DNA of 35,861 bases from Gemmatimonadota bacterium (GCA_031362285.1 JANLSF010000657.1:1-35861); one strand, 5' to 3'; positions 2,236 through 29,905 are shown, counted from the stretch's first letter. Numbers and translations are program-made. The notes: generated from the sequence alone by a model not told the origin.

Positions 2236-2840
2236 GTAACTGGAGTAGCTAATGGTCAGAATGCGGCCACTAGGTCGGCACGGTCGCAATGGCGTTGGGA
2301 GAGCGATGTCCAGTACGTCACTACCGTTAGCAGTGGAGCGACTGGGACGGGGCCAGCGGACGCAGGGACGCGATTCGGTGGCGGGGGGGGGCGAGTCTCT
2401 CTTTGCCGTCCTGTCGCTCTCATTTGCGGTGCCTGCGTCGGACGTGTCTTTGAACTCGACCGTCGTCGCGCCGGCAGTTGTTGGGGCTCTGCCTCCTGAT
2501 CGCGTCGATGGCTCGAATTGCTTCCGCTTCTTGATCCACTGGCTCCGACCACCCCGGATGCCTCCTATCGCGATGAGCAGACATCCAGGTGCGCCCACCG
2601 GGGCGTATTCACCTCGCGAACCCGAAAAGCGCCTGGACACCGGGCGATGAACAAACATTCGCCTCCGTTTGAACCGCCCGGCACCGAAGTTCCAAGACGA
2701 ATGGGACAACCTCGTCGCGCCGTAGCTGCGAGATGGACTTCGACTCGAGGAAAGAAGGAGTATCCGCCATTCTCGAGGAGAGGTGTTTGAAGGATGAGAC
2801 CTAAGGTGTTCCTCGCAGCTGCTAGTGGTGTGACATCGAA

Positions 2841-5800
2841 TTGTTGATGCGCATGCCTCTCCCTGGTCGGGGGCGCCCCGACGCCCACTGCGGCGTCCGC
2901 GCCACCTGGGGCAGATCCCGCGGAGTGGCGCGCCATTTCGCTGTCGCACCACTAGCTCGCATCGAGCCAGGTGCCAGCGCCGTGAACTGTTCAGTGCAGG
3001 CATGCAAGGATGGGCGATCGTCGATCGGTATCGGGCGAGTTGTGGCGGGGCTCTCGGTCATTTTTCTTGTAGTGCTCGCCGGTACGGCAGGAAAAGCATT
3101 CGCTCTTCCTGGTAGGGCACCTCAGCGACCGATAAACGAAGCACTTCACGCGCTGAATCCGACTGGACCACTCATCGCGGCAGATGGCATTACCAGCGAT
3201 CCGTACAACGCGACGGTACGGAGTCTCACACCGACATTGAGCACAATCCCCGCCGCGTTCGCCGGCGGTGGTCAACCTCCCGTTAGCTACACGTTTGCGA
3301 TCTGCACGGGCGCAGGTTTGACTGGAAACTGTCACCTCGCAGAGACCGCGACTCCGACCTACACGATACCGGCGGACGCTCAGTTCACGGATGACTTCGG
3401 CAATCCGACTAGCACGGGGCTGTCAGACCTTGGCTCCTATTACTGGGCTGCGACAGCGGAATGGGAAGACGATTGGTGGGAATCGAGCGAGTATGAATTC
3501 CATGTAGATATCGTCCCGCCCGTTCGCGGGGTGGGCCCGCTCGGCTGGCTGGGACACGGGACCACCCAGCCTCAATTCCAGGTGGCATTCACTCAGCAGC
3601 CGGAGCAGGGGGTTCAGTTCGCATATACCTATCGCATCTACCGATGGGACGGCTCCCTCTACACCACAACAACCTCACCTAGCGGACCGGCGCTCCCTGA
3701 ACCATCAACCTCGGTCGTCTGCAGTCCTCACCCCGATTGCCAACGAGTGTGGTTTTGGGACGCGACTGTCCAATACACGGGGCCGGGCGCCCAACCCGGA
3801 TCAACTGAGGCAACGGCTGCCACGCCCCTTGCGCGCGCGCGCATTGTCTCGGCTCCACAGTTCGTGAGAGAGCCAACCAATCTCAAGCCATCCGGGCTCG
3901 TCAATACGACCGTGACGGTAGCTAATCCGGCGATCAACTTCAGTGGGACCGCCCGTGACCCAGCGGGAGGCCTGTGTCTGGTCGGTATTGCTCCCGAAAG
4001 TTGTCGCTGGGGTATTGGAGTAAGTACTGATCGGACGTTGCTCACTTCGTACACGTTCCCGCAGGGCTTCCTAAATTTCCCCAACGTGATACCGACACAG
4101 AATCGCTGGTCGACGATATGGGGTGACAGTCCCAATCTTGCCTTTGCGACCACGCTTGGGAGTACGGCATGTATACCCTTTGCGTGCTCGTGGGCGACAG
4201 GGCTGACGAACGGTCAAAGCTACTATTGGAATACCGTGGCGAAAGGACAATCCGCGTCACTGGCGTACGGGTTTTGGTTCAAGACCGAGCCAACGGGCTT
4301 TACCTTGTTGCTGGACGACCACGCGCCATGCCCCGTTGGGCCTCGCTTCCAAACGCCAAACGGGACAGAGCCGAACGCTACTTTTCTGACCGCCGCGATT
4401 GACGGCACCGTCTCCGGAGTGACGGGCTGCACGACGGTACCATTGAACGATTCAAGACGAACCTATCGTTGGACGATCTACAAGGGGCCGGGGGCGACCG
4501 CGAAGCAAGCTTGGCAATCGGCTTGGGGGCCAGTGACGGTCAACGGGAATCTCGCGGAGATGAAGGTGCCGCAGGGCGTCGTCGAAAACGGGACACAATA
4601 TCAATATACATTGCAGTCGGCACTCGACGGTGTGCCTGGTACCCCAAGTGCACGATATGCGTTCACGGCCATGATTCAGGCGCAAGTGCCAGAGCCGATG
4701 AGCCCTGGGCAAGGGGCCGTAGTTCCTGCAACCACTCCGACGCTCACCGCGGTCAGCGGCCCTTCCAGTAGAAGCGCTCCGATCGCGTATGCGTTTGAAG
4801 TTTGGGCAAGTGTCGCGACGGATCCAGTGAACCCAGACTGCGGCAACACTGGCAACACGCGAGTCGGTGGGAACAGTCTGAACGGGAGTGACGTGGCCTG
4901 GACGCGTGGCAGTGCGTTCAGCGTCCCAGACGGTTGGCTAACCGACGGGCGAGTGTACTGCTGGCGCGTCAAGGCGATGAATGCATATCAACCGTCGACT
5001 GCATGGTCGAGTTGGCGCGCGTTCAAGGTGAGTCGCCCGATGTTGGGGTCGGGGGACTGGGCGATGTGGTCGCGTGGTCCCGCGTCGGTGAACCTGAAGA
5101 CAGGGAATCTGGTGGTGGGTGTTCCCGGCCCATCGTACCCGACAGCGGTCGGATCGATGGGCGTCGGCCTCGCGTACAATTCCGCGAATAGTCGCGACGA
5201 GGGGTTTGGCCCCGGCGTAACGTTCTCGGTGCCGGCGGGAGCTGACGACGAGGCGGCGCCATCACAGCTGGTGGACTGGAACCTCCCTGCCGGCGGCGCT
5301 CAAGCTGAGAATGTGGTCGAGATCACTGGCGCGGACGGCTCGCCGGAGTTTTTCCTGCCGTTGGCTGATGGGTTGACGTTTGTGCCGGAGGAGCGTGGCG
5401 GGTCGGTTCTGCGTAAGCGGGGGCCGAACGTCAAGCCTGGCACGAATCCGGCTCCGTGGACGTTGACCCGCGGTGACGGCGCGGTCTACACCTTTGGGTT
5501 GGCTGACCCGGTGACGGGGGAGGCGCCGTTGTTGACGGCGCAAATCACGGCGAGCACGCGGGCCGGGGTACGGCTCGTCTATCAGAGTGACGCCTTCGGT
5601 CGGGTCACGAGTGTGACCGACCCCGCGGGTCGCGCGCTGACGTTCAATTGGGGGAGTTCCGCGGTTGGGGCGGTGTGTCCTGATGCGATCGTGTGTGTCA
5701 TCGGCCCCGATCAGGTCACGACGAAGTACGTGGGGGAAGGCGATGCCGGGCGCGCCGGCCCGCTCGTCCAGGTCAAGAACGCGGTACGTCCTGTTGTGGA

Positions 5801-8800
5801 GGTCTCGTGGGAGTACCCGACCAGTGCGCTGGGCGGTCCCGACACGTCGAAGCGTAAGCGCATCGCGAGCGTCCTTGATGCGAACACGATCGCCGCGCAA
5901 GGCCGGGGGCCTGCGGCTGGACTGACCCCGGGGCACAACGGGACTTACAAGCTCGCGTTCGGGTATGCGGACCCTGTCGATAGTTACCGGGCGACCCGGT
6001 TGACGGAAGGGCCGATCACAAGCGCCGGGAGTCAGGTCTCGTCGGTGTGGACGCTCACCTACAACACGGGTGGCACGACCCAGGCGACGGTGAATGCCCA
6101 CCTGCCGCACATCGCGGCAGGCCAGACTCGGCAGGCGGCAGGGAACACCCAGATCACCGGGCCGCGCCACCAGGGCGCCTCCCCAGCTGTGGTCGAGACG
6201 GTGTGGTTCGATGAGTTCGCCCGCCCGATCCAGACGCGCGACAGAGCGGGCCGAACGACACAGGGTGGGTGGAGCACCGACAACCTGCCCGTATGGTCGG
6301 AGGACCCGATCGGCGCGCCAACCGACACGACCTACGAACTCGTCAACAAGACGCCGGTTAGTGTGCAGGGCCCAGACCCCGACGGAGCTGGGACGGCGTT
6401 CACTCAGCGACCTGAATCGCTGTCGTTCTACGACGAGATCACCCCGGGGACCGGACGGGCCACCGGGCCGGTGCTCCACGGGGTGCAAGCGGCGTACTTC
6501 GATAACCGGAACACCGCTGGGCGACCGTACGCGATGCGGCTGGACCCGACAATCGACTTCGACTGGGGTGCTGGGACCGCCACGCCGCTGGCGTCGTTGC
6601 CAAGCGGGCCGCCTGTCGACAACTTCTCGGTCCGGTGGAACGGGGTCCTCGACATCCCTGACGACGGGCAGCCCGGCGACCCCCGCTACGTGTTCACGGC
6701 GGTTGCCGACGGTGGCGTGCGAATGACCATCGACGGGGTCCTTGTCGTGGACAGCTGGGTCGATCCACAAGGAGCCGGGCCCCAAACTTCTGTGTCGGAG
6801 GAGTTGACCATCGCGCCGGGACCGCACCGCGTTGAGGTGAGCTACTTCGATGGGGACAAGTCCAACGCGGCGATCACACTGAAATACCGGCTGACGTCGC
6901 CGACGACGACCTTGGATGCAGTGTTGCTGGCGAGCACGCTCCGACCCGCGTACCTCAACCAGACCTCGACCGTCGGACCGCAACCCGACAACCGCAGGAC
7001 GTTCAGCCACTACGCGACACCCGAGCGCGGCCTACCCGACGACACCCTAGTCAAGGGCCCGGGTGGGCAGGACATCATCACGAGCTTCACTTACGACGAC
7101 CTCGGCCGTACCACCAGCAAGACGATGCCGCGCGGCAACGCCGCCCGGACGATCGACCCGGCGACTGGGAACCTCAACGGCACCCCGGACTCAAGGTTCA
7201 CGACCGAGTGGGCGTACTACGGACTCGTCAGCACCGACGCGAACTACACCGCCCAAATCCCCACAATCTGCGGCGGGACCACCGGTGTCCTCACACCGCA
7301 AGCCGGGGGGTTGCGTGAGAAGCGCGTGCCCGGTCTTGCCGTCGTCACGAGCATCGCTGATGAGGCCGGACGGCCGCGCGCCGATACCCGCGGTCGCGGC
7401 ACGACGTGCTTGAACTACGACGCCGAGGGGCGACTCACGTCCTCCAAAACCAAGGCAGGAAGCGCGCAGCAAGAGGTCACGAACTACACCTACGACCCGA
7501 ACGGTGCGACTCGGATTGTCAGCACCCCCGCGAAAGGCGTCGTAACGACCGAGTACGACGAGGCAGGACGTACCCGCCGGACTCTCGACTCGCAAGACAC
7601 CCCGCCGCCAGCGCCGCCCGGCACCGCTCCGGCGGACGCAAGCGCTCCGACTGCCACGTTGATAAGCCCCGCGGCCGGCGGCGTGACAGGAACACAGGTG
7701 TCGGTAGCCGCGACGATCACCGACGACATCGGCGTGGTCGGCGTCCAGTTCAAGCTCGACGGGGTCAACCTCGGGTCCGAAGACACGCGCCCACCGTACC
7801 GGGTGCTATGGGACGCCACCCAGTCCGGCAACGGCAGCCATCAGCTCACCGCCGTTGCGCGTGACGCAAGCGGCAAGAGCACCACCTCACCCGCAGTCGC
7901 GGTCACCGTTACCGGGGGCCTGAACACCGCACCGGCGGGGCTCGTTGCCGCATACAACTTCAACGAAGGCACCGGCACAATCCTCACCGACCGCTCCACC
8001 ACCGGGAACACCGGTACCCTCATCAACGGCCCCACGTGGAGCACGACCGGCAAATACAGCGGCGCACTGCAGTTCGACGGGGTGAACGACCGCGTCAACA
8101 CTCCTGACGCCAACAGCCTCGACTTGACCAACCGCATGACCGTCGAAGCGTGGGTCAACCCCAGCGCCGGCTCCGCACAAAAGACAATCATCGAGAAGGA
8201 AAACGCGAGCAACCTCCGCTACGGCATCATCCACGACAGCAGCCGCAGACCTCAAGGACGCATCTACAACGGCGCCACCCAGTCGGCAAACAGCGGCACC
8301 GCCCTGCCCACAGGGACCTGGACCCACCTCGCCGTTACCTTCAACGGCAGCGTCGTCACCCTCTACACCAACGGCGGTTCGCCGGTAACACTCTCCACGT
8401 CCACCGCGATGACCGCCGGGACCGGTGTGTTAAGCATCGGCGGTAACACCGTCCGCACCGGAGAATGGTTCACCGGCAGCATCGACGACATGCGCATCTA
8501 TAACCGAAGCCTCTCGGCCGCGGAGATCACCACAGACCTCAACACAGCCTTACCACAGTACGTCGCCGCACAACCACCAGCCGCGACCATACCTGCCGGA
8601 GACGGAGCAACCGAAACAACCCTTGTCTACGACCAGGAAGGTAACCCCCTGCAGCGCAACGCTGCACCCGGCGCCCTCGGCGCTGGCCAAGGGCACACGG
8701 TCAACTACAGCTACAACGCCGACAACTCACTCGCGACCCAGGAGATTCGTGCCTACGGCGCCACGACCGCGGGGGACACATACACCTACAGCTACGACAC

Positions 8801-10343
8801 CCGCGGAGCTCTCAAGGGCATCCAATACCCAGGAACTGTCGCCAACAGCTGGCGCGTCTACAACCAAGCGGGCTGGCTCACCGGCATCTACAACCGCCAC
8901 GGACCGATGCCGACCGGCACCCTAGCGCCCGACGCGCCCCCAGCGGCAGATCTCAGTCCGATTGCGGACTACCTATATGACTACGCACCTGACGGGCATC
9001 AGCTCAGAGAGCAACTCCGTTCCGACACAGCTGGCTCGCAAACGCGAGAGTATTCATACGATGTCGCAGGACGGCTTGCCACCTATTTCACTCCGGCTCA
9101 GCTCCTCCGCGAGTACCGATATGATCTCGATTCGAACCGTACGGCAACGCTGGAAACTCCGTCCGGCGGCGCGCAGGCGTCGGTCGCCACCTACATTTAT
9201 GATCCCGGCACGGCTGGGAGTCCGAGCGGCGTCGACCAACTGACGAGTAAGCTGGAGGCGGGCCAGACTCGCACATACAGCTACAATCCCGATGGAGAGC
9301 TCCGCACAGAAACCGCAGGCGTTGCTACCGTGCGCGACCTGAGCACTACTGGCGACTGGGATGGTCTCGGGTGGCTCTCTGCAGGCACGTACTCTGGTGT
9401 CCGCGTAGCGACGACACGCGATCCGGCTGGAGCTATTAAGGCGCGCGGGTCGGCCGGTAAGACTATCGAGTACCTAGGCAACGACTTCGAAAGAACCGGA
9501 GGTCAAGTCACTCAAACGACGCCCTCCGGTCCTGCCGGCATCCTTGTCCGCTATGCAGGAGCCGCTCCAACAGGTACCCGCACATTCGTATTCTTTAACG
9601 GTCACGGTGACGTGGCCGCGGTAACGTCTTCGTCTGGAGTGCGGCAGGGTCCGGTCTCGACGTACGATCCGTTCGGAAACATCGAGTCCCAGGCAACATC
9701 CACCAACGGGACGGTTGAGGGCTATCTCGGCCAGTCACGCGCGAAACTCGATACAGTGTCAGGCCTCATCACTATGGGCGTGCGCCCATATGATCCATCC
9801 CTCGGCCGCTTCTTAGCTGTCGATCCCGTCGACGGTGGCTCAAGCAATAACTACGACTATGCCCGTCAGGAACCCTGCGGTAACCGTGACCCATCAGGAG
9901 GAGTGACCGTCGCACCCGGTGCCGGATGCAATTTTGCGGGGGTGAGATTCACTGCGCAAGGCGTGGAGTGGTCTCTTCAGACGAACCCTGTTTCCGGGAC
10001 CGTCCACTGGGGGTATCAGTTTACCCCAGCTACTGCTATTGAAAGACCGGTGATTCTTACTTTTGCCGCCAGTTTGACGATCAACGGTCGCACGAGCGGG
10101 TACAGCTATTTTAAGCCCGCTTTTGGGATACCCGGCCCGTTATACGACTTTCACGGCTCGATCCGCAAGAGGCAAACATACCCTGGCGTCGCTGATCGTC
10201 CGGCGGCGAGCCGCCTTTCGCGGCGGGGAGAGCTATTCGTTCTTGTCTTTACGCTCACTGGCCTGGACACCTCTGGCGATCCCTGGACCGGGCGCGGCTC
10301 GATCACTTGTACCTATCGGCCGCGGACTGGACCACGCGGATAG
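2841..10343 (+). CDS. secreted RHS/YD-repeat polymorphic toxin with PA14-, Ig- and LamG-like inserts and an unassigned C-terminal toxin domain
   Basis: Single 7.5-kb ORF with a Sec-type signal (GRSSIGIGRVVAGLSVIFLVVLAGTAGKAFA/LPG). The real start is probably GTG 2994 rather than TTG 2841. Five W-rich ~100-130-aa beta modules span approx 3207-5040. The shell-opening segment reads VNLKTGNLVVGVPGPSYPTAVGSMGVGLAYNS. YD repeats include FTYDDLGRTTSK, YSYDTRGALKG, YSYDVAGRLAT, YRYDLDSNRTA and YSYNPDGELRT. Inserts are PA14-like (approx 6489-6890), Ig-like (7647-7917) and LamG/ConA-like (7941-8550). The RHS core ends GVRPYDPSLGRFLAVDPVDGGSSNNYDYARQEPCGNRDPSGG (DPSG at 9888-9899), followed by a 147-aa tip (9900-10340). 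Confidence 0.95.
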   Translation: MLMRMPLPGRGRPDAHCGVRATWGRSRGVARHFAVAPLARIEPGASAVNCSVQACKDGRSSIGIGRVVAGLSVIFLVVLAGTAGKAFALPGRAPQRPINEALHALNPTGPLIAADGITSDPYNATVRSLTPTLSTIPAAFAGGGQPPVSYTFAICTGAGLTGNCHLAETATPTYTIPADAQFTDDFGNPTSTGLSDLGSYYWAATAEWEDDWWESSEYEFHVDIVPPVRGVGPLGWLGHGTTQPQFQVAFTQQPEQGVQFAYTYRIYRWDGSLYTTTTSPSGPALPEPSTSVVCSPHPDCQRVWFWDATVQYTGPGAQPGSTEATAATPLARARIVSAPQFVREPTNLKPSGLVNTTVTVANPAINFSGTARDPAGGLCLVGIAPESCRWGIGVSTDRTLLTSYTFPQGFLNFPNVIPTQNRWSTIWGDSPNLAFATTLGSTACIPFACSWATGLTNGQSYYWNTVAKGQSASLAYGFWFKTEPTGFTLLLDDHAPCPVGPRFQTPNGTEPNATFLTAAIDGTVSGVTGCTTVPLNDSRRTYRWTIYKGPGATAKQAWQSAWGPVTVNGNLAEMKVPQGVVENGTQYQYTLQSALDGVPGTPSARYAFTAMIQAQVPEPMSPGQGAVVPATTPTLTAVSGPSSRSAPIAYAFEVWASVATDPVNPDCGNTGNTRVGGNSLNGSDVAWTRGSAFSVPDGWLTDGRVYCWRVKAMNAYQPSTAWSSWRAFKVSRPMLGSGDWAMWSRGPASVNLKTGNLVVGVPGPSYPTAVGSMGVGLAYNSANSRDEGFGPGVTFSVPAGADDEAAPSQLVDWNLPAGGAQAENVVEITGADGSPEFFLPLADGLTFVPEERGGSVLRKRGPNVKPGTNPAPWTLTRGDGAVYTFGLADPVTGEAPLLTAQITASTRAGVRLVYQSDAFGRVTSVTDPAGRALTFNWGSSAVGAVCPDAIVCVIGPDQVTTKYVGEGDAGRAGPLVQVKNAVRPVVEVSWEYPTSALGGPDTSKRKRIASVLDANTIAAQGRGPAAGLTPGHNGTYKLAFGYADPVDSYRATRLTEGPITSAGSQVSSVWTLTYNTGGTTQATVNAHLPHIAAGQTRQAAGNTQITGPRHQGASPAVVETVWFDEFARPIQTRDRAGRTTQGGWSTDNLPVWSEDPIGAPTDTTYELVNKTPVSVQGPDPDGAGTAFTQRPESLSFYDEITPGTGRATGPVLHGVQAAYFDNRNTAGRPYAMRLDPTIDFDWGAGTATPLASLPSGPPVDNFSVRWNGVLDIPDDGQPGDPRYVFTAVADGGVRMTIDGVLVVDSWVDPQGAGPQTSVSEELTIAPGPHRVEVSYFDGDKSNAAITLKYRLTSPTTTLDAVLLASTLRPAYLNQTSTVGPQPDNRRTFSHYATPERGLPDDTLVKGPGGQDIITSFTYDDLGRTTSKTMPRGNAARTIDPATGNLNGTPDSRFTTEWAYYGLVSTDANYTAQIPTICGGTTGVLTPQAGGLREKRVPGLAVVTSIADEAGRPRADTRGRGTTCLNYDAEGRLTSSKTKAGSAQQEVTNYTYDPNGATRIVSTPAKGVVTTEYDEAGRTRRTLDSQDTPPPAPPGTAPADASAPTATLISPAAGGVTGTQVSVAATITDDIGVVGVQFKLDGVNLGSEDTRPPYRVLWDATQSGNGSHQLTAVARDASGKSTTSPAVAVTVTGGLNTAPAGLVAAYNFNEGTGTILTDRSTTGNTGTLINGPTWSTTGKYSGALQFDGVNDRVNTPDANSLDLTNRMTVEAWVNPSAGSAQKTIIEKENASNLRYGIIHDSSRRPQGRIYNGATQSANSGTALPTGTWTHLAVTFNGSVVTLYTNGGSPVTLSTSTAMTAGTGVLSIGGNTVRTGEWFTGSIDDMRIYNRSLSAAEITTDLNTALPQYVAAQPPAATIPAGDGATETTLVYDQEGNPLQRNAAPGALGAGQGHTVNYSYNADNSLATQEIRAYGATTAGDTYTYSYDTRGALKGIQYPGTVANSWRVYNQAGWLTGIYNRHGPMPTGTLAPDAPPAADLSPIADYLYDYAPDGHQLREQLRSDTAGSQTREYSYDVAGRLATYFTPAQLLREYRYDLDSNRTATLETPSGGAQASVATYIYDPGTAGSPSGVDQLTSKLEAGQTRTYSYNPDGELRTETAGVATVRDLSTTGDWDGLGWLSAGTYSGVRVATTRDPAGAIKARGSAGKTIEYLGNDFERTGGQVTQTTPSGPAGILVRYAGAAPTGTRTFVFFNGHGDVAAVTSSSGVRQGPVSTYDPFGNIESQATSTNGTVEGYLGQSRAKLDTVSGLITMGVRPYDPSLGRFLAVDPVDGGSSNNYDYARQEPCGNRDPSGGVTVAPGAGCNFAGVRFTAQGVEWSLQTNPVSGTVHWGYQFTPATAIERPVILTFAASLTINGRTSGYSYFKPAFGIPGPLYDFHGSIRKRQTYPGVADRPAASRLSRRGELFVLVFTLTGLDTSGDPWTGRGSITCTYRPRTGPRG

Positions 10344-22773: not shown

Positions 22774-23953
<1,180 letters not shown>

Positions 23954-24362
23954 AACACGGCGTCAGTCGTAAATTGCGGTCATACCCCAGGGCCGTCAAC
24001 GCCAACCATGGCAGCAACCAACAAGATTGATTGCATTTCGAGACTCACAGTTCGCTCGCGGGATGTCACCCCGGATCGGAACCTCCCTCATCCGCGCGCA
24101 GCCAGCACCCCTTTTAGCGGCTGAGCCGCGTGGATAGCGGTCCGGACGCCGAATCGATCCGCTCCGAGCGAAGTCGGGGATTGTTCTGGACTGGTGATCG
24201 GCAGGAACGGCGGCGCTTCGATGTACGTGTTAGATGGGATGACCTGGCGAGCCTGAGCCTCACCCAGCGAGACGGACACTCGGGTGCGCTTGACGCCAGA
24301 AACGCGTCCATCTAGCTTCGACTGTGAGGCGCGGCGTATGCCCTGCCCGGATCGGAGGCTTT

Positions 24363-24585
24363 GTGCCCGGGCCATACATCCACATCAGCTCAATGTGGCA
24401 TGTGGCTGCGGACCCGGGTAGTGGGGGGCCCTACTCGCCGCTCGCCCAGCGATCGGCTCGACCCGGGGCGGGCGGGACCGAGGGCGGGCGAGCTCTCGGC
24501 GATCCTTCGAGCCAAGCCGAACTACGCCGCGCTCGGCGCCATCGGTCCGGATCTCTCCTTCTTCCTCCCCGACTTCCACGACTGA
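24363..24585 (+). pseudogene. N-terminal fragment of a zinc-dependent phospholipase-C-like protein (tentative), frameshifted and truncated
   Basis: GGAGG (24354-24358) precedes GTG 24363, giving VPGPYIHISSMWHVAA... A second frame continues with LRAKPNYAALGAIGPDLSFFLPDFHD and then stops. This resembles only the first ~70 aa of that family. Confidence 0.3.
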
Positions 24586-24736: not shown

Positions 24737-25756
24737 GTGCGCCAGGTCCTGGAGGGAGGGACGATCGGCGGATACACTGTCGTGCTGACGGGGCCCGTTC
24801 CCCTGGTACGTGCGTCCGCGGCACGCCGGGCTCGCGTCCTCCGACGGCAGGCCGGCTTCGCCGGCCGACTGGCTCGGCGCGAGAGCCGGCGGGAGGTGGC
24901 CATCGGGTTCATCGACGGGTCGATTGCGGAGGGTCATCCCAGCCTGGCATCCGCCCGGATCCTCGTCGTCGACGAGGCTGCTGCCCGCCCGCTGCTCGCG
25001 CCTACCGCGACGGAGCACGCGACGTTCACCGCCTCGATGCTTGTGGGACAGGGAGAGGGCGTCCTTGGTCTCTGTCCGGACGCCCTTCTGCTCAGCCTCC
25101 CGGCAGTGAGCGCACCGATGCTCAGCGGCGCCATGCTTCCGGGAGAGGTCGCCGAGCGTCTGGCCGAGGCGGTGCGAGCCGCCGTGCGGGCGGGAGCAGA
25201 CGTCCTGCACATGGGCCTCGAGTTCGACGCGATGCCCACTCGCCACGCGGCTCCCCTCACCGAGGCCCTCCGCGAAGCGGTCGGGCGCGGGGTGCGAGCG
25301 GTGCTCGCCGCGGGGAACTCAGGCCTCCCGGCCGCGTCCTCGGTCCTCGCCGCCGATGGGGCTGTGCCCGTCGCGCTCGGCGGCCGGGCCGGGGATCCTC
25401 ACCCCCTCTCCACGTGGGGGCTGACGATCGGGAGACGCGGGCTCACCGCGCCTGGCGTCGATGTCCCCGGAGCCGTCCCTCCGGACGGGTACGCCCTGAG
25501 GTCCGGCAGCAGCTTCGCCGCCGCCTTCGTGACTGCGGGCTTCGCGCTCCTGCGCGCGGCCGGCCATGACCCCGATGCGGCCTGGGCAGCGCTGCTTGAC
25601 TCCGGCGGGCGCGGCGCGACGCTCTTTCCGCCACCGCTCGACGCAGAGGCCGCCGATGCAAGGTTGTTCACATCTCAAAGGAGGGCTCATGAATACGCAG
25701 GACATCGGGCTGCCACAGGACATCGGGCTGCCGCAGGCCCTCGCGGACGTGGATAA
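24737..25756 (+). CDS. subtilisin-like S8 serine peptidase, PatA-like
   Basis: D/H/N/S motifs occur in subtilase order: VAIGFIDGSI, EHATFTASMLVGQGEGVLGLCP, AAGNSG and GSSFAAAFVTAGFALL. The HxxxxASxxxGQ context resembles cyanobactin PatA/PatG proteases. GTG 24737 is the first possible start, and the real start may lie further downstream. Confidence 0.8.
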   Translation: MRQVLEGGTIGGYTVVLTGPVPLVRASAARRARVLRRQAGFAGRLARRESRREVAIGFIDGSIAEGHPSLASARILVVDEAAARPLLAPTATEHATFTASMLVGQGEGVLGLCPDALLLSLPAVSAPMLSGAMLPGEVAERLAEAVRAAVRAGADVLHMGLEFDAMPTRHAAPLTEALREAVGRGVRAVLAAGNSGLPAASSVLAADGAVPVALGGRAGDPHPLSTWGLTIGRRGLTAPGVDVPGAVPPDGYALRSGSSFAAAFVTAGFALLRAAGHDPDAAWAALLDSGGRGATLFPPPLDAEAADARLFTSQRRAHEYAGHRAATGHRAAAGPRGRG

Positions 25757-26633
25757 GCCGTGCTGCGACGAATGCGCGGCGCGAGATGCGGCGGCGGGCG
25801 AGACCTACGTCTACGCTTTGGGTCAGCTCGACGTTCGGTTCCCCACCATCGGCATCGAACGCGAGTACCAGCAGCGCCAAGCGCGCCTCCCGGCTCCTCC
25901 GAGCGACACGTCTCGCGGCGCCCGCATGCGCCGGGTGCTCGAGGCCAACCCACACCTCGCGGCGCGGGTCTGCTACCTCCTGGTGGTCTCCGGCGTGCCC
26001 GCCTACGTCCTGTCGCCCGGTTCGCCGCATCTTCGGGACAGCCTCTTCGAAGCCGTCGAGAACGCCGGCTCTCCTGAGCACTGGTGCCTGCTGATCGGCC
26101 GCCGGGGGCCCATCGCCGGGCCGGGCGTGTGCGCCGGGGTGCTCGCACCGATCGCGCTCTGCGATCAGCTCTACACCTTCTCGAGCGACGACTGGCTGGA
26201 TAGCCTCGAGGCCAGGGTGAACGGTGCGCTCGGTCCGAGAAAGGTGCCCGTCGAGGCCTTCCGCGCCACCACGCAGGAGCTTTTCGCCCGCATCGCGCGG
26301 TCCACTGAGAACATGGGGGCGACCGACGCGCACCGCGCACTCAACTACCTCCTGTTGCAGCACCCCGGCCTCTTCTTGGCCGGGGCGGAGCGGGCCGGGA
26401 CCAAGGATCTCTCACGGGTCGAGACACGTCTGGTGCAGGGACCCGGAGCCCGCCGCGTCGTGGCGGTCATCCTCACGTTCGTCGAGCTCGCTACGGGGGT
26501 GCCGGAGCGGCTCTTCACGCGCGTGGACGTCAGCGAGGAGTGGCCCTTCGTCGCGGATTCCTCCGACGGCGAGCGCGGCCCGCTCGGCCTCATGCCTTTC
26601 GTGGAGAACGAGTTCGTCGGGATGGCCTTCTAG
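25689..26633 (+). CDS. protein resembling the non-catalytic C-terminal modules of PatA/PatG-type cyanobactin proteases
   Basis: ATG 25689 is preceded by AAGGAGG (25677-25683, 5-nt spacer), and the ORF-track start 25566 is probably too long. YVYALGQLDVRFPTIGIEREYQQ ... NPHLAARVCYLLVVSGVPAYVLSPGS ... WCLLIGRRGPIAG parallels the remembered PatA/G pattern VYALGTIGYDFGTEARRDSF ... LIWTLNLELTPIYAIEP ... It overlaps the S8 gene by 68 nt in another frame. Confidence 0.65.
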   Translation: MNTQDIGLPQDIGLPQALADVDKPCCDECAARDAAAGETYVYALGQLDVRFPTIGIEREYQQRQARLPAPPSDTSRGARMRRVLEANPHLAARVCYLLVVSGVPAYVLSPGSPHLRDSLFEAVENAGSPEHWCLLIGRRGPIAGPGVCAGVLAPIALCDQLYTFSSDDWLDSLEARVNGALGPRKVPVEAFRATTQELFARIARSTENMGATDAHRALNYLLLQHPGLFLAGAERAGTKDLSRVETRLVQGPGARRVVAVILTFVELATGVPERLFTRVDVSEEWPFVADSSDGERGPLGLMPFVENEFVGMAF

Positions 26634-26635
26634 GT

Positions 26636-27547
26636 ATGCCGCTCCTTTCGCCGTCCGCCGCCTACCTCCGCCATTTCGGGGCGGCCGCGCACGCGAGCAT
26701 CGAGTACAGCTTCGACGCGAACCTGGACCGTCATGGCGTTACCGTGCGCGGCGGCGACGGCTTCGCAGGGGTCGTCGGCGAATTCGCGCGCTCGACGCCG
26801 TTCGCGGCCCAATGGGCGTGGGCGATCCAGCGCTTCGATCGCCGCGTGCAGCCCGACTCGTTCCTGTTCAGGGTCGACTGGTGCGCCGACGCGGTCCTCG
26901 CCCTCTCGCTGTACTGCCGGTTCCGCCACGAGCCCTCGGACGAGGCCTATGCAGACGCTATGCAGGCGGCCCGGCCTCACGTCTGGCAAGGCCCCGCGCC
27001 GGGCGTCCTCGCCGCGGTTCTCGGCGTTCCGGGACCCCGTGGGGTCGGATTCCGCGTCCATCGCTCCGGCGCCCTCCGTGTCTCCGCCTATTTCCGGGTC
27101 GATTCCCCCGTCACGATCCTTGGGCCCGATGCGCTCGACCGGCTCATGGACGCGAGTTCCTTCCCCGCGGAGGTTGCTGACCGGATTCTCGCCGACCTGG
27201 AGCAGATACATCCCGTCGGCCTCGCCGGCATCGTGGGGGTGGACGCTGGGTCGCCTGAGCGCGGGCATGCCCTCAAGTTCAACTCCCCCGACGTGCCGCT
27301 AGCGAACGCCCTGGCCTTCCTGTCGTCTAGAGGCGCCGAGCCCGCGGCGCTCGCCCGTCTGGGGATCGTCTCACGGGCGCTCCGGTCGCCGTCCGTGAGC
27401 TACCTCGGCACGCGCTACGACGCCGCGGGCTTCACCGGGTGGCGAGCCTACTTCTCGGCCGAGCCCGCACAGCATGCGACGGCGGAGGCACCCCGCGTCG
27501 TCGCCACCAACGTCACGGCGCAGCCGATGCGCCGCTCTCATCGCTAA
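26636..27547 (+). CDS. ABBA-fold (PT-barrel) protein, possible PatF/LynF-like peptide prenyltransferase
   Basis: ATG 26636 lies 2 nt after the upstream stop. The 303-aa product shows five beta-beta-alpha-alpha units. Strand pairs are IEYSFDAN/VTVRGG, FLFRVDW/LALSLYCRF, VGFRVHRS/LRVSAYFRV, GIVGVDAG/ALKFNS and VSYLGTRY/WRAYFSA. The fold and function call comes from this pattern only. Confidence 0.65.
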   Translation: MPLLSPSAAYLRHFGAAAHASIEYSFDANLDRHGVTVRGGDGFAGVVGEFARSTPFAAQWAWAIQRFDRRVQPDSFLFRVDWCADAVLALSLYCRFRHEPSDEAYADAMQAARPHVWQGPAPGVLAAVLGVPGPRGVGFRVHRSGALRVSAYFRVDSPVTILGPDALDRLMDASSFPAEVADRILADLEQIHPVGLAGIVGVDAGSPERGHALKFNSPDVPLANALAFLSSRGAEPAALARLGIVSRALRSPSVSYLGTRYDAAGFTGWRAYFSAEPAQHATAEAPRVVATNVTAQPMRRSHR

Positions 27548-27560
27548 AGGAGGTACTCCG

Positions 27561-27803
27561 ATGCTCCCAGGATTCACAGGCCTCTCCACCGCCCCCGTCC
27601 ACGGCGCAGGCCCCTCTGCCAACGCGGCCGTCCGACTCGCGCTTTGGGACACGCCGAGCCCCGAAAGGTGCCGCTACGCGAGGACCATCACGAAGTGCAC
27701 AGGAGTGGTGCTCTGGTGCACAGAGGTCTTCGTCTGCGTCAACGGCAGCGAGGAGCGCAAGACGCCGTACCCATGCGGAGGTTGCATCGGGTTCGATTGG
27801 TGA
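27561..27803 (+). CDS. 80-aa Cys-rich precursor-like peptide
   Basis: ATG 27561 is preceded by AAAGGAGG (27546-27553), starts 13 nt after the upstream stop, and ends 4 nt before the next ATG. By hand count about 65 of 80 third codon positions are G/C. Product: MLPGFTGLSTAPVHGAGPSANAAVRLALWDTPSPERCRYARTITKCTGVVLWCTEVFVCVNGSEERKTPYPCGGCIGFDW. It has no signal-peptide-like hydrophobic N-terminus, and all 6 Cys and 2 of its 3 Trp lie in the C-terminal 44 aa. Confidence 0.6.
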   Translation: MLPGFTGLSTAPVHGAGPSANAAVRLALWDTPSPERCRYARTITKCTGVVLWCTEVFVCVNGSEERKTPYPCGGCIGFDW

Positions 27804-27807
27804 CCGG

Positions 27808-28770
27808 ATGAACGCGTCGCTCGCCGGCTCCTGCTGGCCGGCGCTCCGCCGGGACGTACTGACGGCCGTCTCGGGAGGCGTCGCCTACCTCATCGACCAC
27901 CAGTGCGACGACGGCTTCTGGCGGGAGTACGATCTCGCTCCCGGCCAGAGCGAGGCATGGACGACGTCCTGGGTCGGGTCGGCAATCCTCGCTACCGCGG
28001 CGTCCAGCGACCACCGCACCTCTCTCGCCCGGGCCGCTCGGGCCGTCGCCGGCGCGGCCGCCGACGGCGGCTGGGGTTACAACCGCGCCTCGCGACCCGA
28101 CGCCGATTCCACCGCGTGGGCGCTCGCGTTCCTCAGCGCGATGGGGGTCGGCCTCGGTCGCGCGGGTCTGTGCTGCATGCGTGCCTACCTCGACGCCGGC
28201 GGCAGCGCGCACACCTTCCTTGATGACGACGCGGGTGGGTGGGGTGAGGCGCATCCCGACGTGACGCCGATTGCCGGACTGGCCCTGTTGGGCCTCGGTG
28301 CTCCGGCCTGCCTCGTCGACCTCGTCCGTGCCGCCGTCCTCGGATCGCCCCGCCCAGATGGCATTTGGACGTCCTACTGGTGGTCGACCGATACCTACGC
28401 GACGGCTTGGTCACTCAGATTCCTGGCCAGGTCGGGGGGTGTGCCCGCCAGTTGCGCCTCCAGCGGCGAGCGCTGGCTTGCACGCCTAGAGGAGGGTGGC
28501 ACCAGCCCGTTCGAGAGCGCCCACCGGCTGCTCGCCGCCACAGCGCTCGGCCTGCACGCAGCCGACCTTGCCGTGGATCTCGTCGACGAGGTTCTTCGGG
28601 GAGCATCGGCCGGGGGTGCCTGGCCACCCTCGGCCGCCCTCATGGTCCCGTCGCGCCGCAACGAGCCCGGGTCGGGTCCCCATGCCGACACCAGAGGGAT
28701 CATGACTACGGCCATCTCATCCGCGGCGCTCTGCGCATGGATGAGGGCCGCTGACGCGGTGCGTGTGTGA
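27808..28770 (+). CDS. single-barrel prenyltransferase/squalene-oxidase-repeat protein, class-II terpene-cyclase-like
   Basis: ATG 27808 is in frame with ORF 27439..28770, giving 320 aa. QW-type repeats are GGVAYLIDHQCDDGFW, AARAVAGAAADGGWGY, VRAAVLGSPRPDGIW and VLRGASAGGAW. The segment DGGWGYNRASRPDADSTAWAL (DADSTA at 28099-28116) parallels the squalene-hopene cyclase GGFAFQ...YPDVDDTAVVVWAL catalytic region. Confidence 0.8.
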   Translation: MNASLAGSCWPALRRDVLTAVSGGVAYLIDHQCDDGFWREYDLAPGQSEAWTTSWVGSAILATAASSDHRTSLARAARAVAGAAADGGWGYNRASRPDADSTAWALAFLSAMGVGLGRAGLCCMRAYLDAGGSAHTFLDDDAGGWGEAHPDVTPIAGLALLGLGAPACLVDLVRAAVLGSPRPDGIWTSYWWSTDTYATAWSLRFLARSGGVPASCASSGERWLARLEEGGTSPFESAHRLLAATALGLHAADLAVDLVDEVLRGASAGGAWPPSAALMVPSRRNEPGSGPHADTRGIMTTAISSAALCAWMRAADAVRV

Positions 28771-29123: not shown

Positions 29124-29905
29124 TCAGGAGCCGATGAGGACGACTGTGTAGCCGCCGAAAACTTGACCGTCCTGACTTGCGCTGAGCCGGTAGACGTGCG
29201 CCTCCCCTGCGGCGGGTGGCGCATCAGTTGTCGTGCACGCGACCTGCTGGTCGTCACCGACAACGTGCTGCTGGTCGGCTCCCGCGCCCGTTGGGCGGCC
29301 GCCGCCGACAGCACCTGGCGGTGAGAGCACAGCAGCCCCGGTGGGCACGGCTTGATTCGGGAACTGGCCACGCGTGCCGGTGTGCAGCTGAAGCCACGGC
29401 ATGGCGCTCGGCGCGACGCGGGTCGCGGTCACCTGTGCGGACGCCCCGTAGAGCGGCCCGACCTTCAAAACCACCGGGGCGTGTGCCCCGGGAAGCGCCT
29501 GCAAAGGGAGACCCCCGCCAAGGGCCTGATCATCATCATCTGGCCGCCCACAGCGGGGACGACGTGGATGTTGCGCTGGCCGATGTGGCGGTTGAGAGAC
29601 GCATCCCAGGGCGGGTTGCCGAGCGCGTCGGAGGTGTAGTCCCAGGCGCGTACGAGCAGGCATTCGTGCCCGCCGTTGAGGAACATCGGCGTCCACGCTT
29701 CGGGGCACTTGACGACCTTATGCGACCAGCCGCTGCCTTTCGCTCCGAGCGACGCGACAGTCTGGCCGATGAGGTGTGCGCTGCCGGGCCCAATGCCGAG
29801 CGACGGGTCACACCAATAGAACTCGACGATGACTTCCAGGGCTTGGGCCTGCCCGAAGTTCCAGACATGCGCGTAGACGGTGACCCCTTCAGCTCGTTCG
29901 AATAC
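29124..29905 (-). pseudogene. 5-prime-truncated and frameshifted gene for an unassigned beta-rich protein
   Basis: One minus-strand frame reads EGVTVYAHVWNFGQAQALEVIVEFYWCDPSLGIGPGSAHLIGQTVASLGAKGSGWSHKVVKCPEAWTPMFLNGGHECLLVRAWDYTSDALGNPPWDASLNRHIGQRNIHVVP with no start codon. A second frame continues after the (ATG)3 / gatcatcatcatc tract (~29520-29535) with APVVLKVGPLYGASAQVTATRV...HVYRLSASQDGQVFGGYTVVLIGS. Its upstream end abuts the IS remnant. Confidence 0.5.

Follow-up and report, generated by a model that had tools for sequence, protein, structure and literature searches.

The window analysed here is a 35,861-nt stretch of DNA from a Gemmatimonadota bacterium (GCA_031362285.1, JANLSF010000657.1:1-35861). 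The element of interest is a small gene at 27561..27803 on the plus strand, which an earlier note, made from the sequence alone, had put forward as the putative precursor of a ribosomally synthesised and post-translationally modified peptide (RiPP). The open reading frame (ORF) begins with an ATG at 27561, ends with a TGA at 27801-27803 and comprises 80 codons; the coordinates and translation given in that note are exact. A strong Shine-Dalgarno (SD) sequence, AAGGAGG, is read at 27547..27553 (+), leaving 7 nt between it and the ATG. The gene is wedged between two enzyme genes. The stop codon of the upstream gene, which encodes a candidate prenyltransferase, is a TAA at 27545-27547 and is separated from the precursor ATG by 13 nt, and the ATG of the downstream terpene cyclase gene, at 27808, follows the precursor stop after 4 nt; both gaps had been reported before and are confirmed. 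The G/C content at third codon positions (GC3) is 0.80, in line with the high value first noticed. The peptide carries cysteines at positions 37, 46, 53, 59, 72 and 75 and tryptophans at 29, 52 and 80. The six cysteines and two of the tryptophans (52 and 80) lie in the C-terminal 44 residues, which end in CIGFDW, and here too the sequence agrees with the first description.

The GC content of the window is 67%, and 113 ORFs of at least 60 residues overlap 16 kb; an 80-codon ORF therefore proves nothing alone, and the evidence for a gene has to come from conservation. A protein search returned two relatives of 80 residues (48% and 54% identity), both with matching gene context, and a genome scan located the same context in a metagenome-assembled genome (MAG) of the Bryobacterales (Acidobacteriota; locus L008). 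Metagenomes were also scanned with the downstream protein as the seed, and six-frame translations were then searched with a hidden Markov model (HMM), which placed further peptides right next to the closest cyclase homologues, on their upstream side. When 1.8 billion representatives were searched exhaustively with a profile, 30 matches to the peptide came back. Word-indexed searches with the peptide and with the 303-residue upstream protein yielded 2-5 relatives only; it was the profile search and the DNA-pattern scans that revealed the family. At least 12 distinct cassette-linked homologues of 80-91 residues are now in hand, from soil metagenomes and a Bryobacterales genome. The earlier note had suggested looking for a conserved small ORF in homologous loci, and one is present in all 12 that reach this position (L001, L006, L008, L010, L012, L033, L046, L022, L015, L011, L049 and L051). 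The cassette-linked peptides begin with M[LVA]PGF, except for one MVSD start. The 44-codon cores of L001 and L006 are separated by 28 nucleotide differences, 24 of which fall at third positions; 22 codons change synonymously and 3 with replacement of the amino acid, a pattern that indicates purifying selection on the coding frame. The 80-codon ORF is a genuine gene on which selection is purifying.

The contrary view, that there is no gene at 27561-27803 and that the ORF either arose by chance in GC-rich DNA or belongs to a 109-residue basic protein starting at ATG 27474, has virtually no chance of being right. ORFs of similar size are common in the window, and the 109-codon ORF in which the precursor ORF is nested (27474..27803), reported earlier, does exist. 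Against this, at least 12 distinct homologues keep the length, the N-terminus and the cysteine framework, and synonymous changes dominate the substitutions. A strong SD precedes 27561, in-frame stop codons occur 3-8 codons 5′ of the MLPGF start in L006 and L008, and the extension (27474-27560) is not conserved. With a GC3 of 0.62 and a second-position value (GC2) of 0.83, the extension carries the codon-position signature of the overlapping upstream prenyltransferase frame. The start at 27561 is thus supported by sequence comparison, through the conserved N-terminus, the upstream stops in L006 and L008 and the codon-position GC of the extension, and the start at 27474, raised in the note as an alternative, is unsupported; the comparative data refute both the chance ORF and the 109-residue protein. 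The peptide has no match among NCBIfam (June 2026) or Pfam (2025) models, nor does the upstream prenyltransferase have a model in Pfam (2025) or NCBIfam (June 2026), which suggests that neither family has yet been curated.

Leader, core and the six-cysteine module

The family alignment divides the peptide into a leader region, residues 1-36 (27561..27668, +), with the motifs MLPGF(T/S) and (A/L)G.WD.P, and a core region defined by the six-cysteine pattern, residues 37-80 plus the stop codon (27669..27803, +). The core reads C-x4-T-x-T-x-C-x6-C-x5-C-x12-C-G-G-C-I-G-F-D-W, and the family as a whole C-x4-T-x-T-x-C-x6-C-x5-C-…-Y-P-C-G-x-C, nearly always ending in D/S-W. Across the 30 family members five cysteines are invariant, the first cysteine is nearly so, and T42, T44 and Y70 are nearly invariant. 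In all members the conserved core reaches the stop codon, with no C-terminal follower. An AlphaFold2 model made with 23 family sequences predicts residues 1-30 to be disordered (pLDDT 43-58, no secondary structure) and residues 31-80 to form four beta strands (pLDDT 78-90). The leader region has no signal-peptide character. A disordered N-terminal third joined to a folded cysteine-rich part fits a leader plus core, and the earlier description of the first 36 or so residues as leader-like and not signal-peptide-like holds up. Among the 12 cassette-linked peptides the C-terminal tryptophan is kept in 11 and Trp52 in 10. Those of L010 and L012 are eight-cysteine variants in which the two extra cysteines occur together; such a paired gain fits the usual signature of disulfides.

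The same six-cysteine module, with its terminal GFDW, also ends a set of large signal-peptide proteins (P0015, P0021, P0023, P0025, P0028 and P0030), where it reads …C.F.HT.TKC……WC…..C…PCG.C.GFDW at the extreme C-terminus. Its carriers include a 561-residue protein with lectin-like repeats and a 502-residue PLL beta-propeller/DUF346 protein; one such locus is L050:18-1526. In the two secreted-protein neighbourhoods that could be inspected (P0025 and P0030) all four cassette enzymes are absent. Since the module occurs on secreted proteins without the enzymes nearby, it is an autonomous extracytoplasmic fold that the pathway decorates and not a core defined by the pathway, and it looks like an undescribed autonomous cysteine-rich domain. 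The version with the MLPGF leader, including the WDWLTGG subtype (L049), is the enzyme-linked one.

The five-gene cassette

The precursor belongs to a cassette with the order PatA-like S8 protease, PatG-DUF protein, orphan protein of about 300 residues, peptide and cyclase of about 315 residues. The full cassette is found in the window, L001, L006, L008, L010/L020, L012/L013 and L051; in L033 it is truncated at both contig ends, and L011, L015, L022, L046 and L049 hold parts of it, so that the cassette is conserved in 8 independent loci and five partial ones. In all loci the two enzyme genes are separate, with the precursor gene between them. Intergenic gaps in the window are 2, 13 and 4 nt, and stop and start codons overlap in L001 and L006. 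The flanking genes vary between loci, and those of L001, L010 and L012 share no accessory gene for an isoprenyl diphosphate synthase (IDS), an exporter or an oxidoreductase. By inspection, none of the five cassette proteins has a signal peptide. The layout is the general one of a RiPP precursor, with a small leader-plus-core peptide gene beside candidate modifying enzymes and a protease. L032 and L045 contain long ORFs that were considered as prenyltransferase–cyclase fusions and rejected, their N-termini being Arg-rich and out-of-frame-looking.

The first gene (24737..25756, +; start codon uncertain) encodes a PatA-like subtilase of the S8 family, in keeping with the protease neighbour first proposed. 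It matches Pfam Peptidase_S8 (1.6e-8) and the NCBIfam PatA/PatG family TIGR03895 (1.8e-15), the latter at 56.8 bits against a cut-off of 421 bits, which makes it a distant relative. Its best sequence matches in the Protein Data Bank (PDB) are the N-terminal proteases of cyanobactin pathways, PatA/PagA (3zxx, 4h6v and 4h6w) (about 1e-13), and the match to the PatG macrocyclase 4aks is weaker (3e-9). The catalytic Asp, His and Ser are intact and conserved in six homologues. The Asp and His lie 34 residues apart; in the PatG macrocyclase the spacing is about 70, owing to its capping helices, and the short spacing indicates that the PatG-type capping insert is absent. The subtilase is the probable leader peptidase. 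The two loci with eight-cysteine peptides (L010 and L012) are also those with an altered oxyanion-hole Asn in the protease, described below. The 3′ end of the S8 ORF overlaps the next gene by 68 nt (25689-25756), and its C-terminal 24 or so residues are without counterpart in homologues; this may be either a genuine gene overlap or a slightly altered 3′ end of the S8 gene.

The second gene (25689..26633, +), whose ATG at 25689 is preceded by AAAGGAGGG, encodes a stand-alone homologue of the PatA/PatG C-terminal DUF, with PatG_D (3e-15, 57 bits) and PatG_C (9e-14, 52 bits) both above the Pfam gathering thresholds. It is the best conserved cassette protein (46-54% identity between loci), and by inference only it may act in leader binding or scaffolding. 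Near its N-terminus we observed a perfect-but-one 18-nt tandem duplication at 25698-25733 (caggacatcgggctgcc[a/g]), which translates to DIGLPQDIGLPQ.

The gene immediately upstream of the precursor (26636..27547, +; start set by alignment with homologues) encodes a protein of 303 residues that gave nothing in Pfam, NCBIfam or PDB profile searches (run with 3 and 10 sequences). A single AlphaFold2 model, built from six sequences, has a pLDDT of 82 and a pTM of 0.83, and DSSP assigns it 10 strands in five alpha-beta-beta-alpha units. When the model was compared with the PDB by Foldseek, all 50 matches listed were ABBA prenyltransferases (probability 1.0, TM 0.5-0.63), among them DMATS1, FamD1, IptA, CymD, PriB, NphB and CloQ as well as the peptide prenyltransferases LimF and KgpF. 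The predicted structure thus supports the assignment as a sequence-orphan prenyltransferase of the ABBA fold (PT-barrel), and structure prediction is what now stands behind the ABBA-like neighbour of the earlier note. The copy in the Bryobacterales MAG is broken into two frames (L008:7965-8889, as 7965-8414 and 8284-8889), through either a frameshift or an assembly error.

The gene downstream of the precursor (27808..28770, +) encodes a protein of 320 residues that is, by sequence homology, a class II terpene cyclase of the monodomain, MstE type. A profile of its homologues matches the PDB sequences 8pak (5e-22), 8paj (2e-20), 6ij1, annotated ‘Prenylcyclase’ (6e-20), and MstE itself (6sbb, 1e-17). 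An invariant D98-A-D100-S-T aligns with the DADST of 8pak, 8paj and 6ij1 at the position of the DxDD motif; in MstE the acid motif is reported to be DxD (PMC12414744). Many Trp, Tyr and Phe are invariant among the homologues. The cyclase-like neighbour proposed earlier is therefore a class II terpene cyclase homologue with a conserved DxD. More distant MstE-like cyclase genes (27-35% identity) were seen at L037:4889-5908, L043:4902-5879 and L016:4900-5988. Those of L037 and L043 are preceded by a gene for a helical, trans-IDS-like protein with a ‘FDSxVDD’ motif, a layout resembling a split ChrPC, and that of L016 by a gene whose product shows K.Y/R.Y strand motifs of ABBA-like appearance. L037 also has a B-lectin protein upstream.

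Beyond the cassette, two-frame fragments of a protein of unknown function occur at 29127-29980 (-) and 24328-24582 (+); the corresponding protein precedes the cassette in L008, at 61-71% identity, and in L001. The window also holds a 47-residue remnant of a second such protein, which has 774 residues in L001. In L001 and L008 both genes, together with a cobW/COG0523 GTPase gene, precede the S8 gene, and the copies in the window appear decayed or rearranged. An integrase/transposase-like fragment at 22774-23091 (+; …DYRVLASIGSVGDAYDNALAESF…) and cysteine-desulfurase-like fragments just upstream of the cassette at 22994-23953 (-), both identified by eye only, suggest that the upstream DNA is a rearranged or mobile region. 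Further upstream lie a 2,505-residue protein with LamG, PA14, Big_7 and RHS-repeat domains (2826-10343, +) and giant proteins at 13692-17393 (-) and 16856-21916 (-), namely a 1,686-residue RHS/YD-repeat protein and an overlapping 1,233-residue ORF with DUF4474. These three ORFs look like a polymorphic-toxin locus unrelated to the precursor cassette.

Proposed maturation and competing explanations

We judge it highly probable that the small ORF is a genuine gene of precursor type within a RiPP cassette, and the RiPP reading of the earlier note is borne out by the conserved slot, the enzyme neighbours and the leader/core architecture. We further consider it probable that the ORF specifies the precursor of a ribosomal, post-translationally modified mini-protein that is prenylated, has its prenyl chain cyclised and loses its leader by cleavage, through the action of the four neighbouring enzymes. 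The leader (MLPGF…, …WD.P) would dock the precursor on the enzymes, possibly through the PatG-DUF protein. The ABBA enzyme would then move an isoprenyl chain, most plausibly C15 or C20 since a class II cyclase requires a polyene, from a diphosphate of primary metabolism onto a side chain of the core. The C-terminal Trp80 is the best candidate acceptor and Trp52 the second. Trp80 is favoured as the best conserved core tryptophan among cassette-linked peptides, and because Trp is the acceptor for each of the long-chain peptide prenyltransferases characterised (NctPC, ChrPC, ComQ and PalQ; PMC13290415, PMC10853753); PalQ moreover requires a C-terminal Trp, and the peptide ends at Trp80. Asp100 of the cyclase DxD may protonate the distal double bond, whereupon the chain would fold into a polycyclic terpenoid while still attached to the peptide. 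The subtilase would remove the leader somewhere between WD.P and Cys37; no relative order is implied for prenylation, cyclisation and leader removal. After export the six cysteines would form three disulfides, yielding a lipidated, defensin-like mini-protein of about 44-50 residues that probably acts on membranes or envelopes, as an antimicrobial or a signal. Disulfides are favoured by the paired cysteine gains, by the presence of the module on signal-peptide proteins and by the fold match, though not significant, to the three-disulfide laterosporulins. The finding that the distant cyclases again stand beside genes of the prenyl-transfer type is counted in favour of this scheme. A broader idea is offered more tentatively: the cassette may represent an undescribed RiPP–terpenoid hybrid family, in which a three-disulfide module of secreted proteins has been captured by a leader-dependent pathway. 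An orphan ABBA prenyltransferase and a separate MstE-type cyclase would install the terpenoid, probably on the C-terminal Trp, and cyanobactin-derived PatA and DUF proteins would carry out processing.

Several observations weigh against a terpene-modified peptide. The modification is a computational prediction, and the specific proposal of prenylation and chain cyclisation we regard as more likely than not. The prenyltransferase call consists of one AlphaFold2 model and fold similarity at 10-16% identity, and no sequence link was found from the 303-residue protein to known prenyltransferases, including PatF/LimF, NphB/CloQ and DMATS. Neither an isoprenyl diphosphate synthase nor an exporter was found in the cassette. 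Trp52 is replaced by Phe in two cassette-linked peptides and the L010 peptide ends in WG. The enzyme-free modules keep the same terminal tryptophan, so its conservation need not reflect prenylation and the case for Trp80 as acceptor is weak. Strong conservation also sets the core apart from most RiPP cores. In the proteases of L010:2797-3744 and L012:2819-3787 the oxyanion-hole Asn (AAGN) is changed to Gly or His, with the triad kept. The fold match of the core to laterosporulins has a probability of 0.97-0.99 yet an E value of 0.25-0.5, which is not significant, and a profile search of the peptide family found no sequence similarity to laterosporulins.

The strongest competing explanation, which we nevertheless think unlikely, is that the peptide is a leader-bearing, disulfide-rich protein of bacteriocin or defensin type matured by the subtilase, and that the two enzymes make a separate small-molecule meroterpenoid. 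It would account for the autonomy of the six-cysteine module on secreted proteins without the enzymes, and for a core that is confidently folded in the model and resembles the unmodified laterosporulins; ABBA enzymes, moreover, mostly prenylate small aromatics, and MstE, the founder of the cyclase clade, acts on a small aromatic meroterpenoid (PMC12414744). It does not sit well with the position of the peptide gene between both enzyme genes in every locus, at gaps of 13 and 4 nt or with overlaps, or with a cassette that has no conserved gene for an aromatic acceptor substrate. The pairing of a PatA-like protease with a PatG-DUF protein is a RiPP hallmark, and prenylation of a peptide Trp followed by MstE-like cyclisation has been documented (PMC13290415).

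Two further readings would give the peptide a different modification. A genuine cyanobactin, with the core excised at both ends, macrocyclised N-to-C by a PatG-type enzyme and then prenylated, comes to mind since a PatA/PatG-family subtilase, PatG_D and PatG_C domains and an ABBA-fold prenyltransferase are all present; we regard it as very improbable. There is a single subtilase, nearer to PatA, whose 34-residue Asp-His spacing excludes the macrocyclase capping helices, and the core runs to the stop codon, so there is no C-terminal follower to form an acyl-enzyme. The RSII (G[LV]E[AP]S) and RSIII (AYDG) motifs, which the earlier note had not seen either, are absent from the sequence, no PatE-type precursor model matches, and no YcaO heterocyclase or oxidase was found with Pfam and NCBIfam. 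To our knowledge, class II cyclases are not part of cyanobactin pathways, and the presence of one here also counts against a cyanobactin. With no follower sequence and no macrocyclase insert, N-to-C macrocyclisation is excluded; a true cyanobactin was rejected, as three of its defining features (macrocyclase, follower and RSII/RSIII) were not found. The alpha/alpha-toroid architecture is common to LanC and terpene cyclases, and one might instead suppose the 320-residue protein to be a LanC-like thioether cyclase that bridges the six cysteines to conserved threonines in lanthionine fashion; Thr42, Thr44 and the six cysteines are indeed conserved in the core. This we find scarcely credible. The protein has no invariant Cys, so the Cys-Cys-His zinc site is absent, and its homology, with E values of 1e-17 to 1e-22, is to class II terpene cyclases, whose DxD acid motif it keeps. 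No dehydratase, kinase or lyase gene occurs in or near the cassette, and the gain of cysteines in pairs fits disulfides. A lanthipeptide was accordingly set aside, neither a dehydratase gene nor a LanC zinc cyclase having been found.

Comparison with known systems

Cyanobactin pathways (PatA, PatG, PatF and PatE) share with the cassette a precursor operon that encodes an ABBA-fold peptide prenyltransferase alongside a PatA-like subtilase and PatG_D/PatG_C domains. The window differs from them in having no PatG macrocyclase/oxidase, heterocyclase, RSII/RSIII or follower; its DUF forms a protein of its own, it includes a terpene cyclase, and the prenyltransferase is not detectably related in sequence. 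The core is 44-55 residues long here and 6-20 residues in cyanobactins. The folded core itself is best matched by laterosporulin 3 and laterosporulin (TM 0.65, rmsd 2.8 Å over the whole 49-residue target, at E values of 0.25-0.5 that are not significant). Laterosporulins (4ozk, 6lwy) are defensin-like class IId bacteriocins of about 49 residues with six cysteines, three disulfides and a four-stranded beta fold; they are leaderless and unmodified, unlike the leader-bearing peptide of the window.

On the enzyme side, MstE (6sbb), 8pak, 8paj and 6ij1 are likewise class II cyclases of a single beta-domain, of about 320-365 residues, and share with the window cyclase the DxD(S/E) acid motif and an aromatic-rich cavity. 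At 320 residues the window enzyme is shorter than MstE, and it would presumably act on a prenylated 80-residue peptide, in contrast to the small geranylgeranylated aromatic acid that MstE cyclises. In PalQ/PalX and ComQ/ComX a ribosomal peptide is prenylated on a conserved Trp, as is presumed for the window. PalQ specifically prenylates a C-terminal Trp (PMC10853753) and needs it as the last residue, as Trp80 is in the window peptide. PalQ and ComQ belong with the all-helical, trans-IDS-like enzymes rather than the ABBA barrels, and are found without a terpene cyclase or a cysteine-rich core.

The closest known systems are NctPC and ChrPC, for which the present comparison draws on secondary accounts of the original study (Hubrich et al., Chem 2024, via PMC13290415). 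According to these, NctPC is an ABBA-barrel prenyltransferase fused to an MstE-like cyclase that attaches a geranylgeranyl chain to a peptide Trp and cyclises it afterwards (PMC13290415), and ChrPC is a trans-IDS-like prenyltransferase fused to a cyclase (Hubrich et al., via PMC13290415). The product is named steromaze (PMC13647313), and the work is tied to lanthipeptides, with ring formation preceding prenylation (PMC12715784). On that basis the systems are alike in combining a precursor peptide with a prenyltransferase and a monodomain class II cyclase resembling MstE, and NctPC, too, has an ABBA barrel as its prenyltransferase part, one that bears little similarity to the prenyltransferases of cyanobactin pathways. 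Cyclisation of the peptide-attached chain is described as shown for NctPC, whereas for the window cassette we can only infer the same step. NctPC and ChrPC are each one fused protein; the window has separate prenyltransferase and cyclase genes flanking the precursor. So far as these accounts allow, the window cassette also differs in its cyanobactin-like processing genes (a PatA-type protease and PatG-DUF), in having no lanthionine synthetase or Nif11/NHLP leader, where the published systems are linked to lanthipeptides (PMC12715784), in its conserved, folded six-cysteine core, and in its hosts, Acidobacteriota and soil bacteria.

In the literature found, peptide prenylation followed by class II cyclisation goes back to the single 2024 study, with fused enzymes. 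Should the proposed pathway be correct, the cassette would be a second and widespread architecture for this chemistry, which would have been assembled more than once from different parts, and a stand-alone prenyltransferase and cyclase would be at hand for lipidating mini-proteins. The cassette would then yield a terpene-cyclised RiPP with a folded, disulfide-rich substrate and no lanthionine synthetase, would give the PatG DUF its first functional context as an independent, highly conserved protein with a testable role, and would connect a new six-cysteine domain, seen on secreted proteins, with a modified natural product. Acidobacteriota and soil bacteria are, in addition, little-explored producers. 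The cassette is best described as a variant of the terpene-cyclised RiPPs, set apart from NctPC and ChrPC as far as the secondary descriptions of those systems reach. Measured against them, peptide prenylation and cyclisation are already known, and what looks new is the split architecture, the folded six-cysteine substrate and the stand-alone DUF protein.

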